A stretch of DNA of 6,574 bases from a virus (Duplodnaviria; Heunggongvirae; Uroviricota; Caudoviricetes). Positions 1 to 6,574 of this stretch are shown here, piece after piece; position 1 is the stretch's first letter, and each line of letters starts with the position of its first letter. A program made the position numbers and the translations under genes. Where the stretch lies: IMG/VR virus record IMGVR_UViG_2778261184_000015, positions 1 to 6,574 of that record. One strand, given 5' to 3'. The notes beneath the pieces were generated by a model. It was not told the DNA's origin. It saw only the letters and a list, made by a program, of their open reading frames with translations, and searched no databases.

Positions 1-201
1 TTACCCATTGGCGCGGCTTAAGAGCTTATTTTTGAATTCACAATGGTCACGATATAACCATCTTGCTCGTCCGTGGATAACTTTGGCTTTTGGCAGGTCT
101 CCGGACTTAATCCGGTCGTAGATGAAGGTTTTACCAAAGCCAGTATCAGCCATGATGAATTTCAAATCAACCAGTGAATCAGGTTGTAGTTCGTGTTGCA
201 T
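1..201 (-). CDS. Excisionase / AlpA-family helix-turn-helix DNA-binding protein (66 aa)
   Basis: Minus-strand ORF with ATG at 199-201 and GGAG about 10 nt upstream. The pattern L..L..I...TG.....IY..I..G.LP..K...GR.RW fits the phage AlpA/Xis winged-HTH family as I recall it. It sits at the distal (left) end of the leftward operon, where xis sits in lambda. The integrase would lie beyond the window start. Confidence 0.75.
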   Translation of the reverse strand: MQHELQPDSLVDLKFIMADTGFGKTFIYDRIKSGDLPKAKVIHGRARWLYRDHCEFKNKLLSRANG

Positions 202-2359: not shown

Positions 2360-2856
2360 TGGTTGCCTCCTTTGCGAAGCTGGTCGGCGAACAAACGTAC
2401 ACTAGACGCTTCACTGCGTAGAAACTTAACGGCATAATCAAAACCACCTCGTTCTGCGTCGTCTGCTCCGTTGTCGAGGTTATCTGCGTACATCTCTACC
2501 CCCTGCGCCCGTACTTCAGCCAGGAAAGCATCGGTGGCTGGGGTTTCCGTGAAGTTGTCCTCCCAACCGTAGTACTCCTGACGACAGAAGTTATTAAATT
2601 CCTTCTCCGACTGTTTAAGCGCCGCATTCTCCGCCGCCAGCGCCGCGCACTTGGCTTCAAGGTTATCAATCGTGATTCCGGAAGAACGACACTCACGAAA
2701 CGCCGTTTCCAGTTTTGATTCAAGTTCACCGAACTTACGCACCAGATATTCAGCGTTTGTTTCGTTAACCTTTAAATCACTTGGGATGCATTTACCTTTC
2801 AGAAAACCATCCATCTCAATTAGTGTCATTTGTTTCATTTCTTCCCACTCCGCCAC
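2356..2856 (-). CDS. Ea22-like family protein, second paralog (160-166 aa)
   Basis: The ORF opens with GTG at 2854-2856, but the ATG at 2836-2838 (Met7) has GGAG/GGGAAG upstream and forms an ATGA overlap with the stop of the upstream small ORF, so 2838 is the more likely start. Coiled-coil middle ([12 protein letters not shown]) and conserved-looking C-terminus ([21 protein letters not shown]). Confidence 0.75.
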
Positions 2857-3017
2857 ATCGCATTCAGATATTTGTTTTGATTCACTGATGGAAAAGAATT
2901 TCTCTTAAGCAATTCATCTCTCGATGGCATTGGCTTTACGCGTTGGCGAATAATCATTTCTGCCGGAAGAATGCCGGGATTGTATGCAAGTCCTCTCATG
3001 GTAAATTCCTCAGTCAT
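2835..3017 (-). CDS. Hypothetical small protein (60 aa); frame shared with track ORF 2835..3152
   Basis: ATG at 3015-3017 gives [60 protein letters not shown]. Its stop forms an ATGA overlap with the Ea22-like ATG at 2838. No clear SD. The longer track version would overlap the 98-aa ORF for about 140 nt and is less plausible. Confidence 0.4.
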
Positions 3018-3306
3018 TACTGATAGCGCCATAGCGTGAGCGGTAATTACGCAGGCGCGGGTCGATATATTCAGGGAAGTGGGTATATGTGGCTTTGCGG
3101 AATGGTCGGATTGATGTCTGGTAAATTCGCTCGCGTTCTTCTTTCTCTGCAAGCCATATACAATGGCGAAATTCCTTTTCCTCTTTCGTTTCCTGCGGTA
3201 GCGACATTATCCGATCGTAGTTTTTTCTGAATTTATCCAGCACCTCCGATACGGAATTGCCGGAACAGCGGCGCGGGTCATCTGCACCATACTGAGGCGC
3301 TGGCAT
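3010..3306 (-). CDS. Hypothetical phage protein (98 aa)
   Basis: ATG at 3304-3306 with AGGAG 6 nt upstream, 13 nt after the SSB stop. Charged, protein-like composition. No family recognised. Confidence 0.65.
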
Positions 3307-3319
3307 GATTTTCTCCTGA

Positions 3320-3835
3320 TTAAATTGCGTGAATAGCGTGACGAGGGAAGGGGAGAGTTACTGGTGCAAAGGGGATATCGTCGTCAAAATCCATAGGTGG
3401 TTCGCTGTGATTTCCCTGCTGCTGAGGTTGCTGTCTTTGTTGCTGACCATTATTTCGCTGAGGTGAAGACTGTTCATTGCCTCCTTGCTTGCCACCAAGC
3501 ATTTGCATGGTTCCACCAACGCCCACGATGACTTCGGTAGTGAACCGATCCTGTCCGCTTTGATCCTGCCATTTTCTTGTCCGCAATTTTCCTTCAAGAT
3601 AAACCTCAGAGCCTTTTCGCAGATATTCGCTGGCAATTTCTGCCAGTTTCCCGCTCATTACCACGCGGTGCCACTCCGTCTGCTCCTTTTGCTCTCCAGT
3701 TTGCTTATCACGCCATTGTTCTGACGTAGCAACTGTAAGGTTTGCAAATGCCGTTCCTGATGGTGAATATCTGATTTCTGGATCATGCCCAAGGCGACCA
3801 ATAATGATCACCTTATTTACGCCTCTGCTTGCCAT
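3320..3835 (-). CDS. ssb: Single-stranded DNA-binding protein (SSB) with 15-aa C-terminal extension
   Basis: The N-terminal OB-fold region is near-identical to E. coli SSB as recalled ([10 protein letters not shown]..., [34 protein letters not shown]). It has a short Gly/Gln-rich linker and the acidic tip MDFDDDIPF. Here the reading frame continues past IPF for 15 codons ([15 protein letters not shown]) before TAA at 3320-3322. The ATG immediately follows the annealase stop (TAAATG). Confidence 0.95.
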
Positions 3836-4543
3836 TTATGCCGCCTGTTTTAGCTCGTTAACTCTGATGTTCATTACCTGAACGCATTTAGCCTGCGCCT
3901 CCTCGTTTCCAGCCATTAATTGCCAGTCATGCTGATAACGCTCGATGAGTTTTTTCTTGTCAGTTTCTGTCGCTGCATAATCGCTGAAGTCTTTCAGGAT
4001 TTGTTCGCAGTCAACCGATGGAGATTTCTGGTTGGTATTTTCTGGTGATGGTTTGTTATCTGATGCTGGGATTGCCCAGCCTGGCAGCGATGGAGGGAGC
4101 CAGTAAAATCCTGTTCCATCCTTGAGTTTTGCCCTGTGCCATCCCTGCTTTTTGTCGAGAGATGTTTGTGCGAAACCTTCCTCAAGGTTATACAGATACC
4201 GACCTATTCCCCATTGAACGGCAGCACGCTTCATTGCACCGGAACGACCACCTTTTACTGCTTCTACCTGCGTGTTTTCAGCGGCATCCCATTTGGTTAC
4301 CCATTCGGAATCAATCTTGATTGATATGCCGCATTCAACTCCGCCGTTGTTGGGAATATCGCGGTATTCATTGCGCCATCCTGCTTTGCCGCAAACATCG
4401 TCCAGGCGTTTCATGATTGCCCGGTTCGTGACATAAGCCAGCACCATAGCCCACACTTTGCCATCGCGTGTTTTACCGCTTTGCTGTATTCGCCATTCGA
4501 TATCTTCAGGGCTGAATGGCTCATCGAATTTGTTCAAATCCAT
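3836..4543 (-). CDS. Rad52-family single-strand annealing protein (Sak-like recombinase, 235 aa)
   Basis: The N-terminal pattern F.PE.IEWR.Q..G......WA..LAY...R.....LD.V.G..GW...Y fits the Rad52/Rad22 N-terminal fold pattern as I recall it from human Rad52 and phage Sak. GAGGTG lies 7 nt upstream of the ATG at 4541-4543. It occupies the position of bet/recT. Confidence 0.85.
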   Translation of the reverse strand: MDLNKFDEPFSPEDIEWRIQQSGKTRDGKVWAMVLAYVTNRAIMKRLDDVCGKAGWRNEYRDIPNNGGVECGISIKIDSEWVTKWDAAENTQVEAVKGGRSGAMKRAAVQWGIGRYLYNLEEGFAQTSLDKKQGWHRAKLKDGTGFYWLPPSLPGWAIPASDNKPSPENTNQKSPSVDCEQILKDFSDYAATETDKKKLIERYQHDWQLMAGNEEAQAKCVQVMNIRVNELKQAA

Positions 4544-4551
4544 AATTCACC

Positions 4552-4722
4552 TCAGAATGGACACGGCCCAAGGAAATAACGCTGATTTAATACTTCGACT
4601 CGGGACAAATTAAGGCATACCCGCATTCCTTCGCGGTCACCATTATGGCGAAACCAGAGAGCTTTCTGCGTGTACATGCGCCTCTGTAACTTGCTCTCCT
4701 TCACTGTGGTTGCAAGTGACAT
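4552..4722 (-). CDS. Small ORF (56 aa), not in the supplied track
   Basis: Hand-translated: MSLATTVKESKLQRRMYTQKALWFRHNGDREGMRVCLNLSRVEVLNQRYFLGPCPF. ATG at 4720-4722 with a strong AAGGAG 6 nt upstream. The stop is 8 nt before the annealase ATG. Overlaps the 52-aa ORF in another frame. Confidence 0.45.
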   Translation of the reverse strand: MSLATTVKESKLQRRMYTQKALWFRHNGDREGMRVCLNLSRVEVLNQRYFLGPCPF

Positions 4723-4801
4723 GAATATCTCCTTCGTTACCGATTAAATCTTTCATCTGACGAATGAATTCTTCGTCTGACCAGTTATCTGTAAAACTCA
4801 T
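4643..4801 (-). CDS. Small acidic ORF (52 aa), not in the supplied track
   Basis: Hand-translated: MSFTDNWSDEEFIRQMKDLIGNEGDIHVTCNHSEGEQVTEAHVHAESSLVSP. Its ATG (4799-4801) overlaps the stop of the Kil-like ORF as ATGA with AGGA upstream (translational coupling). Overlaps the 56-aa ORF by 80 nt in a different frame. Confidence 0.35.
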   Translation of the reverse strand: MSFTDNWSDEEFIRQMKDLIGNEGDIHVTCNHSEGEQVTEAHVHAESSLVSP

Positions 4802-4950
4802 TTCCTGCGATACCACGGAAGGTTGATAGCTGATTTCATCGCTTTATTTGCTTCAAGCCACATTTTGGAATCACCAATAAATCTGGCTATTACTGCTTTG
4901 TTCTGTGCAGCACGAAGCATCTGGTGATTGATGGCTATTTCATTGCGCAT
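4798..4950 (-). CDS. Kil-like small protein (50 aa), candidate host cell-division inhibitor
   Basis: Hand-translated: MRNEIAINHQMLRAAQNKAVIARFIGDSKMWLEANKAMKSAINLPWYRRK. GAGG lies 7 nt upstream. It overlaps the 3' end of cIII by 16 nt, as kil does in lambda. The motif IA.FIGD.KM..EA resembles my recollection of lambda Kil. This is unverified. Confidence 0.5.
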   Translation of the reverse strand: MRNEIAINHQMLRAAQNKAVIARFIGDSKMWLEANKAMKSAINLPWYRRK

Positions 4951-5066
4951 AATAAGACCTCAACTCTTTTCCATCCGTCACGTAATTTACGGGTGATTCG
5001 TTCAAGTAAAGATTCATTTAATTGGAAGGCACCCATGCGAGCGCCTCCCGCGATTGCGTAAATCAT
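4935..5066 (-). CDS. cIII: CIII-like protein (43 aa), FtsH inhibitor / CII stabiliser
   Basis: Hand-translated: MIYAIAGGARMGAFQLNESLLERITRKLRDGWKRVEVLLCAMK. From memory, lambda CIII begins MQYAIAGWPVAGCPSESLLERITRKLRDGWKR, so the N-terminus and the ESLLERITRKLRDGWKR core match. The C-terminus is shorter and different. AAGGA lies 8 nt upstream of the ATG at 5064-5066. Confidence 0.8.
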   Translation of the reverse strand: MIYAIAGGARMGAFQLNESLLERITRKLRDGWKRVEVLLCAMK

Positions 5067-5090: not shown

Positions 5091-6059
5091 TTAGTAGGTT
5101 ATTTTTGTTGCGAATACTTCGCCTTTTACGATGGCTGTTATGATATTTTTAGCAACATCTTCTGATGCGCCAACCTTGATAAGGTCAGCAAGTATTTTGT
5201 TATTTACTTCTTTCCGGTGAGCTTTATCCTTTGCTCTACGCTCTTCTTCTTCCTTGATTCTTTTTTCTTCTGCTATTCTGGCTTGCTCTTTTGCTTCAGC
5301 CTCGCGCCGGATTCGTTCAGCCTCCTCCTGTGCTTTTCGGCGTTCTGCTTCAATTGCCGCCTGCTTTTCTCTTTCAGCTCGTTCTGCTGCCTCTTTTGCT
5401 TCGCGCTGTGCTCGTTGCTCGGCTTCAATGCGTTCACGCTCTGCACGTTCCGCTGCGGCCTTAGCTTCTGCTTCTCGCCTTGCTGCTGATTCAATTTCGG
5501 CTTTTGCCTTTGCTTCGGCTTCTGCTCTGGCTTTCTCTTCAGCTTCTCTTTTTAAGCGTTCTTCATGCTCTCGCTTTTCCTGCTCCGCTTTGAGTCTTGC
5601 CTCTTCTCTTTGGCGGTCAAATTCGCGATCCATCAAAATAGCTATTTCATGATCAGACTCAATTTGCTTTGCGAGAGCTTCAGCTGCTGCCTTAGCTTCT
5701 TCTTCGGCTTTAATCCGCGCCTGTTCCTCCTCATAATCAGTAAGAGGCTGGCGAGCCTTGGCTTTCAGTTCATCAAGGCGATCGCGCACTGTCTTGCGGT
5801 TGGCATCAATTAGCTTTGGAATTTCCTTCAGTTCAGCAACAAGGTCTTTGCCAAGACCATCGAGATATGTTTTCGTCTGCGCAACTTTATACGCCAGAGA
5901 AGCAATCTCCTTTCTGCCCTTTGCCGTTGTGATATCAGGCACAAAGGACATAACTTCACGTTCAACCTTTTGGAGAATTTCTTCAATCTGGTCGGCAGAC
6001 TGAAATACAGTCATTGCATTTGCTTTTTCAATAACAACTAAATCTGTTACTTCACTCAT
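5091..6059 (-). CDS. Phage coiled-coil protein with long ER/K-rich helical segment (322 aa); family uncertain, possibly DUF1351-like
   Basis: ATG at 6057-6059 with GGAGG upstream. An N-terminal region of about 100 aa and a C-terminal region of about 40 aa flank roughly 175 residues made almost only of E, A, K and R (EAEAKAKAEIESAARREAEAKAAAERAERE...). The family call is from memory only. Confidence 0.85.
   Translation of the reverse strand: MSEVTDLVVIEKANAMTVFQSADQIEEILQKVEREVMSFVPDITTAKGRKEIASLAYKVAQTKTYLDGLGKDLVAELKEIPKLIDANRKTVRDRLDELKAKARQPLTDYEEEQARIKAEEEAKAAAEALAKQIESDHEIAILMDREFDRQREEARLKAEQEKREHEERLKREAEEKARAEAEAKAKAEIESAARREAEAKAAAERAERERIEAEQRAQREAKEAAERAEREKQAAIEAERRKAQEEAERIRREAEAKEQARIAEEKRIKEEEERRAKDKAHRKEVNNKILADLIKVGASEDVAKNIITAIVKGEVFATKITY
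5220..5750 (-). repeat. Low-complexity coding repeat (GAA/GCA/AAG/CGN-rich codons) encoding the ER/K segment
   Basis: The plus strand here is strongly pyrimidine-biased with short reiterated units (gcttc, ctctt, ttctgc). It generates three overlapping spurious ORFs in the six-frame track. Confidence 0.6.
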
Positions 6060-6210: not shown

Positions 6211-6241
6211 TATGCCAAAAATAAAGGCCGACTATGCGGCC
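6211..6241 (-). terminator. Intrinsic terminator (minus-strand) abutting the IS1 end
   Basis: Stem GGCCG / CGGCC (6226-6241) with a 6-nt loop, followed on the minus-strand RNA by UUUAUUUUU (6211-6225). The IS1 left end begins 3 bp away. Confidence 0.5.
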
Positions 6242-6298
6242 TTGGTGATGCTGCCAACTTACTGATTTAGTGTATGATGGTGTTTTTGAGGTGCTCCA

Positions 6299-6574
6299 GT
6301 GGCTTCTGTTTCTATCAGCTGTCCTTCCTGCTCCGCTACTGAAGGCGTGGTGCGTAACGGCAAAAGCACTGCCGGACATCAGCGCTATCTCTGCTCTCAC
6401 TGCCGTAAAACATGGCAACTGCAGTTCACTTACACCGCTTCTCAACCCGGTACGCACCAGAAAATCATTGATATGGCCATGAATGGCGTTGGATGCCGGG
6501 CAACTGCCCGCATTATGGGCGTTGGCCTCAACACGGTTTTACGTCACTTAAAAAACTCAGGCCGCAGTCGGTAA
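6299..6574 (+). CDS. insA: IS1 InsA (91 aa), transposition regulator and N-terminal part of the InsAB' transposase
   Basis: The 91-aa product [89 protein letters not shown] matches IS1 InsA with two substitutions relative to the copy I recall (D to E, I to V). The stop is at 6572-6574. Confidence 0.95.
6548..6556 (+). other. IS1 programmed -1 ribosomal frameshift site (TTAAAAAAC, the A6C slippery motif)
   Basis: The motif sits in the insA frame as L-K-N near the insA 3' end, where the IS1 frameshift that produces InsAB' is known to occur. Confidence 0.7.

Follow-up and report, generated by a model that had tools for sequence, protein, structure and literature searches.

The recombination genes of the window, by which is meant the whole stretch of 6,574 nucleotides that was analysed, are best read as a P22-like (Sf6-like) recombination module of a lambdoid prophage, which has no exonuclease gene because, as is proposed here, the nuclease of the host, RecBCD, is used. 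The probability of this reading is put at roughly three in four. An earlier note on the same DNA had described a Rad52-type annealase gene followed by an SSB gene, in the position held by gam-bet-exo in lambda, and had found neither an exonuclease nor a Gam-like gene. Most of this description holds: both gene assignments are sound, cIII and kil lie upstream as in lambda (the arrangement matches arf-erf-abc1-abc2 of P22 equally), and profile searches with Pfam, PHROGs and NCBIfam find no exonuclease gene. The statement on Gam does not stand, as the gene after ssb is abc2, whose product is the functional counterpart of Gam. With abc2 beside ssb and RecBCD as the likely nuclease, the apparent puzzle of a missing nuclease is removed. 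The module is of an already catalogued type (P22/Sf6/HK75-like) and not an unexplained gap, and the fitting comparison is the P22 module, not lambda Red.

The genes of interest all lie on the minus strand, and their transcription proceeds towards lower coordinates. The homologous-recombination module is part of the early-left operon, which runs leftward as cIII-kil-(two small ORFs)-annealase-ssb-abc2. In the order of transcription, the features are as follows.

5091-6059, minus strand: 322-aa coiled-coil protein, Sf6 gp33-like; no family assigned.
4935-5066, minus strand: cIII, FtsH-inhibitor lysogeny factor, upstream border of the recombination region (PF02061, E=4e-15; phrog_550).
4798-4950, minus strand: kil, host division inhibitor (PF06301, E=1.7e-20; phrog_2055).
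4643-4816, minus strand: small acidic ORF, Sf6 gp30 / HK97 gp42.1-like, in the P22 arf slot; likely start at the ATG at 4801 (phrog_2123, E=4e-41; Sf6 annotation).
4552-4722, minus strand: small ORF, Sf6 gp29 / HK97 gp42-like (phrog_1723, E=4e-35; Sf6 annotation).
3836-4543, minus strand: single-strand annealing protein, Rad52/Rad22-type, 235 aa (PF04098).
3320-3835, minus strand: bacterial-type SSB, 171 aa (PF00436; TIGR00621).
3010-3306, minus strand: abc2, anti-RecBCD protein 2, 98 codons (PF11043; phrog_656; PDB 8B1T/8B1U).
2835-2999, minus strand: DUF2737 gene, homologue of P22 orf56, downstream border (PF10930, E=7e-30; 74% identity to P22 orf56).
1-201, minus strand: TorI/AlpA-like excisionase.

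The ORFs of the module are all intact and full length, and each module gene is preceded by a Shine-Dalgarno sequence (GAGGTG for the annealase, AGGAG for abc2). The two small ORFs at 4552-4722 and 4643-4816 overlap each other by 80 nt and both lie in the slot of P22 arf. PHROGs calls the two of them 'recombinase' without visible basis. They were considered as Arf homologues and rejected, because neither matches PF17585 and P22 Arf belongs to phrog_2445. Genuine Arf homologues are found upstream of Rad52-type annealases in four other loci (L093, L094, L095 and L104).

Further along the operon, past the DUF2737 gene, come a 166-aa ORF, one gene each of the Ead/Ea22-like and Lar-like kinds and several small ORFs. 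Among the early-left genes on the minus strand, 1419-1721 encodes a Lar-like restriction-alleviation protein, 1190-1426 a 78-aa phrog_625 protein, which matches only positions 1-75 of a 98-position family profile, 462-773 a 103-aa protein whose match to a ClpX-type zinc ribbon is weak, and 1-201 the TorI/AlpA-like excisionase. The 322-aa protein contains a long Glu/Ala/Lys/Arg-rich coiled coil and is labelled 'TolA' or 'coiled-coil' by PGAP; its gene stays syntenic with the annealase family down to an identity of 43-61%. At 6245-6574 on the plus strand, directly after a terminator-like hairpin (6224-6243), stands the left end of IS1 with insA, which parts the recombination region from the N/ral/PL-proximal portion of the operon; a prophage of E. 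coli CE20 (locus L087) has IS1 at the corresponding position. Because IS1 separates the module from the promoter-proximal genes, expression of the module in this prophage may be impaired. Promoter and terminator scans of the window gave the same counts as shuffled sequence. There are 0 Chi sites in the 6.6-kb window where 0.17 are expected, so this count is uninformative.

The annealase matches PF04098 (Rad52_Rad22) with E=5e-26 and a score of 91.9 bits, where the cutoff is 20.3. The match extends over residues 4-136 and profile positions 7-153 of 153, and PF04098 is present in 120/120 of the annealase homologues listed. PDB sequence searches, with the single sequence and with a 40-sequence profile, returned no Rad52 entry and only weak noise from WW-domain and ribosomal proteins, so that a comparison of folds was needed; the predicted fold has the beta-beta-beta-alpha core of the Rad52 N-terminal domain. 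The protein shares its Pfam family and a matching predicted fold with the N-terminal annealing domains of eukaryotic RAD52 and yeast Mgm101, although identity is 14-21% and an Erf-type C-terminal domain replaces the RPA/RAD51-binding region. By family analogy, the annealase would form an oligomeric ring. Residues 126-156 (4075-4168, minus strand) contain a three-stranded segment, GWHRAKLKDGTGFYWLPPSLPGW, that weakly resembles a WW domain (match to PRP40, E about 0.1), and this segment is conserved in the distant bacterial homologues that match residues 1-160.

After the Rad52/Rad22 domain, which spans residues about 4-136 (nt 4136-4534), come a disordered linker and, at the C-terminus, a domain of three helices (residues 157-235, nt 3839-4075) with homology to the C-terminal domain of Erf from P22. 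By BLASTP, residues 157-235 and residues 134-205 of Erf are 66% identical over 79 aligned positions, and the similarity to Erf is limited to these C-terminal 79 residues. Erf itself matches PF04404 over residues 5-146 (E=4.6e-46), and the tail that it shares with the annealase lies mostly outside that domain. Assignment of the annealase to the ERF family was rejected, as it has no PF04404 match at E<0.01; the label 'Erf-like' in PHROGs and RefSeq stems from the shared tail. The annealase is a domain chimera, in which a Rad52-type annealing domain is joined to an Erf-type C-terminal domain. Many distant Rad52-domain homologues from Gemmatimonadota, Deltaproteobacteria and Bacillus were found in a genome-wide scan, and they align to residues 1-160 only; their gene neighbourhoods were excluded because naive ORF calling is unreliable in high-GC contigs. 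The chimera and these partial homologues fit a remark in a survey of lambdoid phages, where "shuffling of partner interaction domains" is named as the probable source of promiscuous module combinations (PMC12315714). We infer that the Erf-type domain docks a partner, for which the SSB tail is the most likely candidate and Abc2-RecBCD a possible one. The SSB tail is favoured by analogy with the Sak4-SSB pair of HK620 and with the binding of SSB by Beta, which is cited in the same survey (PMC12315714). A proposal that the Erf-type domain tracks abc2 was rejected, since the domain persists in diverged relatives where abc2 is not detectable. HK620, judging from the architecture of Sak4, presumably has abc2 without this domain.

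At the junction GCATAAATGGCA, the stop codon TAA of the annealase gene directly abuts the ATG of ssb. The ssb product matches PF00436 over residues 6-105, the OB fold (E=2e-38), and scores 184.7 bits with TIGR00621 against a cutoff of 53.95. The OB fold is followed by a Gln/Gly-rich linker, the acidic tip DFDDDIPF (nt 3368-3391) and a 15-residue extension (nt 3323-3367). A canonical SSB has DDDIPF at its extreme C-terminus, whereas here the motif stands at residues 151-156 and 15 residues follow it. Of the full-length SSB models in NCBIfam, those extending to the tip (e.g., NF006533 and TIGR00621) stop at residue 156.

The distribution of this extension was followed in 80 IMG/VR loci with an annealase at least 98% identical, 72 of which have at least 2.5 kb downstream. 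Across the 80 loci, the extension is present in 59/60 alleles that are free of an HNH gene; in the HNH-bearing alleles the SSB ends in ...IPF (20/20), and 14 extension residues end the HNH ORF instead. The extension codons differ from those of L093, whose SSB is 76% identical, by 7 synonymous and 0 non-synonymous changes, and from those of L095 by 6 synonymous and 2 conservative ones, and the extension is therefore under purifying selection. Most of the diverged phage SSBs that adjoin this annealase have a canonical end. Among the best 150 representatives of 50%-identity SSB clusters, 13 have an acidic tip of the DDDIPF type in an internal position with a short tail behind it, and one of these lies two genes away from another Rad52-type annealase. 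A homologue search with the 43-aa SSB tail alone returned 18 short fragments. In Sf6-like relatives, an HNH cassette of ~460 nt swaps out exactly the tip codons (3366-3380 in the window versus 5807-6268 in L001, which is Sf6). The cassette provides a ...DSDIPF-stop of its own, and its reading frame continues into the former extension. The tip, MNFDDSDIPF in Sf6-like phages and MDFDDDIPF in the window, looks like the product of a homing-endonuclease insertion with changes at the target site.

In complexes of SSB with its host partners, the partner binds the free carboxylate of the terminal Phe. A capped tip is consequently predicted to alter the choice of partners. An unlikely extension of this idea is that the capped SSB and the Rad52/Erf-type chimera form a private handshake, in which phage-coated ssDNA would be kept from the host SSB interactome (RecO, RecQ, ExoI, PriA) and channelled to annealing. 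If so, a host-like open tip would be restored to the SSB of Sf6-like phages by their HNH homing cassette.

The gene abc2 starts 13 nt past the ssb stop codon, with its own AGGAG ribosome-binding site. Its product matches PF11043 (E=3.5e-61), phrog_656 ("abc2 anti-RecBCD") and chain A of 8B1T/8B1U (E=1e-55), the cryo-EM structures of the complex between RecBCD and P22 Abc2. P22 Abc2 binds the RecC subunit (PMC9836394), and its P68 contacts PpiB, in the PpiB active site. The window protein is 92% identical to P22 Abc2; compared with chain A of 8B1T it has 3 substitutions in the RecC-binding region (residues 3-66), and P68 is kept. At this level of identity, it would be expected to bind RecC and modify RecBCD in the same way. 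RecBCD with Abc2 largely retains helicase and nuclease activity and loses its response to Chi, and it has been proposed that the hijacked enzyme produces ssDNA and hands it over to the phage recombinase (PMC9836394). Avoidance of Chi by phages with Abc2 has also been described (PMC3784561), and the lack of Chi sites in the window, though uninformative at its length, agrees with it. In P22, Abc2 is the counterpart of lambda Gam in function, with a different mode of action. Even for P22, the hijack model falls short of full proof, as Abc2 barely alters RecBCD activities in vitro and loading of the recombinase is undemonstrated (PMC9836394).

The P22 module has the order c3-kil-arf-erf-abc1-abc2-orf56, as against cIII-kil-(two small ORFs)-Rad52 annealase-ssb-abc2-DUF2737 in the window. 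The two share the operon position after c3-kil, a 92% identical abc2, a 74% identical orf56/DUF2737, an annealase with a homologous C-terminal domain, and the lack of an exonuclease gene, which is the rule in the P22 module (PMC9836394; PMC12315714, Table 1). They differ in the annealing domain, Rad52/Rad22 (PF04098) in the window and ERF (PF04404) in P22, and in that a bacterial-type ssb takes the abc1 slot and two unrelated small ORFs the arf slot; the window contains no homologues of P22 arf or abc1, which counts against the P22-type reading. Relative to P22, exchange is limited to the annealing domain and the slots of abc1 and arf.

Sf6 (genes 28-27-26-25) is the best overall match, with 97.8% identity over 71% of the window and the same annealase, ssb and abc2. 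Unlike the window, it has the HNH endonuclease cassette (gene 26) at the SSB-tip codons, and its SSB ends in ...DSDIPF. In HK75, a Hendrixvirinae siphovirus, the gene order and, ssb apart, the gene lengths are identical to those of the window (a 708-bp annealase gene, ssb, a 13-nt gap, abc2 and DUF2737), and the two modules share about 92% of their nucleotides. The HK75 ssb has 507 bp, against 516 bp in the window, and one small ORF is annotated upstream where the window has two; in content, the two modules show no functional difference. A 2025 survey of 325 lambdoid phages sorts Rec modules by anti-RecBCD protein, SSB, nuclease and strand-annealing protein (SAP), and HK75 is its prototype of the anti-RecBCD+, SSB+, nuclease-, SAP+ class, found in 27/314 lambdoid phages of Enterobacteriales (PMC12315714). 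The likewise nuclease-less P22-type module occurs in 46 phages, and a nuclease gene is absent from 84/246 phages with a Rec module (PMC12315714). The window has the features that define the HK75 type: anti-RecBCD, SSB and SAP genes are present and contiguous in the early-left operon, and a nuclease gene is absent.

HK620 (hkaM-sak4-ssb-abc2) also has an annealase, its own SSB and then abc2, with no exonuclease gene. Its annealase Sak4, in contrast to that of the window, is an ATPase resembling RecA/Rad51, and the SSB is a remote, non-canonical homologue. The cognate SSB stimulates this annealase via the SSB C-terminal tail (Hutinet 2018, PMC5928155). Lambda Red (gam-bet-exo) shares the position after cIII-kil in the early-left operon and the combination of an annealase with neutralisation of RecBCD; in lambda, however, a phage gene supplies the 5'-3' exonuclease, and the DNA mimic Gam blocks RecBCD.

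The identities, order and tight spacing of the genes, their synteny with P22, Sf6 and HK75, and the invariance of ssb-abc2 in close relatives are observed in this module; the biochemical steps we infer throughout, following the hijack model of Murphy. Abc2 would bind RecC and render RecBCD Chi-blind, with its helicase and 5'-strand nuclease activity kept, and Abc2-RecBCD would then make 3' single-stranded tails on the ends of phage DNA. These tails would be coated by the phage SSB, and the Rad52-type annealase would anneal complementary strands. Annealing in turn would circularise the terminally redundant genome and yield concatemers. The handover from RecBCD to the annealase is hypothetical even for P22.

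An unlikely, though not negligible, alternative is that no resection nuclease is needed at all. The annealase and SSB would use ssDNA at replication forks or ssDNA exposed by further host nucleases such as RecJ/RecQ, and Abc2 would serve in end protection only, as Gam does. This would agree with the small effect of Abc2 on RecBCD activities in vitro and with HK620, where oligonucleotide recombineering is stimulated by ssb only, is explained fully by sak4 and ssb, and gains nothing from abc2 (PMC5928155). It would also agree with the more diverged relatives. In Enterobacterales loci with a 49-78% identical annealase, ssb follows the annealase in 14/17, and abc2 is not detectable in these 17 loci; the next gene varies, e.g., a PolB-exo2-like 3'-5' exonuclease in L094, a PD-(D/E)xK_5 protein in L100, and small unknowns elsewhere. 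Abc2 is thus a partner in this clade and not obligate for the whole annealase family. On the other hand, ssb is followed by abc2 in 72/72 close relatives, and mere protection fits poorly with the nuclease and helicase activities that Abc2-RecBCD keeps. These points favour the use of RecBCD as the nuclease of the P22-like module.

Although the order of ssb and abc2 is invariant in the close relatives, the slot between them is not. Nothing lies between the two genes, as in the window, in 28/72 loci; a 182-aa DnaQ-like DEDD 3'-5' exonuclease is present in 29/72 and an HNH endonuclease gene, that of Sf6, in 18/72, with the 3/72 loci that have both included in each of these two counts. The DnaQ-like protein belongs to PF16473 (Rv2179c-like, E=1e-73; e.g., L003 3521-4069 and L004 6095-6643). 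Nucleases of the DnaQ and HNH types occur in the Rec modules of the survey, and 3'-5' exonucleases usually inhibit recombination (PMC12315714), which makes the latter unlikely candidates for the missing resection enzyme.

Because these genes sit exactly between ssb and abc2, the window could be taken for a reduced or decaying four-gene module that has lost the DnaQ-like exonuclease (or, as in some relatives, HNH), and the IS1 insertion shows that the prophage is gathering damage. This is improbable. The 28/72 relatives that share the minimal form include the viable phage HK75 and have the same 13-nt spacer with no remnant, the module ORFs of the window are all intact and full length, and a 3'-5' exonuclease has the wrong polarity to provide the 3' tails used by the annealase and usually inhibits recombination (PMC12315714). 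The ssb-abc2 slot is a variable cassette site, and the window has its empty form without the remnant of a deleted gene.

As to the partner nuclease, the earlier note had left open whether it is encoded by the host, by one of the unassigned small ORFs or elsewhere. The first option is most likely right, as abc2 is the known means of recruiting RecBCD; among the small ORFs, no nuclease match was obtained. All operon ORFs of at least 43 aa were compared with Pfam and PHROGs, and a subset of ten with NCBIfam as well; no nuclease family and no homologue of lambda Exo, Bet or Gam was detected in these searches, and PDB sequence searches with the 78-, 103-, 166- and 213-aa ORFs gave no nuclease. Lambda exo, bet and gam were not found by tblastn in the 80 close-relative loci nor in 80 more diverse loci. 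The pairing typical of lambda Red and RecET, in which a Bet/RecT annealase stands beside a 5'-3' exonuclease of the YqaJ/lambda Exo or RecE type, is absent from the window. In the related complete prophage of E. coli CE20, only NinB and RusA were seen beyond the module, in the nin region, and neither is a resection nuclease. That an unrecognised phage exonuclease is hidden in one of the window ORFs of 322, 166, 103, 78, 63, 60, 57 or 56 aa, several of which have no assigned function and were compared by sequence-profile methods alone, or lies elsewhere in the prophage, is very improbable in view of these searches, of the CE20 prophage and of the survey of 325 lambdoid phages, in which such modules contain no conserved unknown gene (PMC12315714).

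The P22-like module, with host RecBCD as its nuclease, has implications beyond this prophage. Annealase-SSB pairs of this kind are candidate recombineering tools, and the chimeric annealase and the capped SSB tail may matter for the design of such tools. The variable slot between ssb and abc2, which is empty or holds a DnaQ-like exonuclease, an HNH endonuclease or both, is a natural experiment on the accessory nucleases that these modules tolerate.
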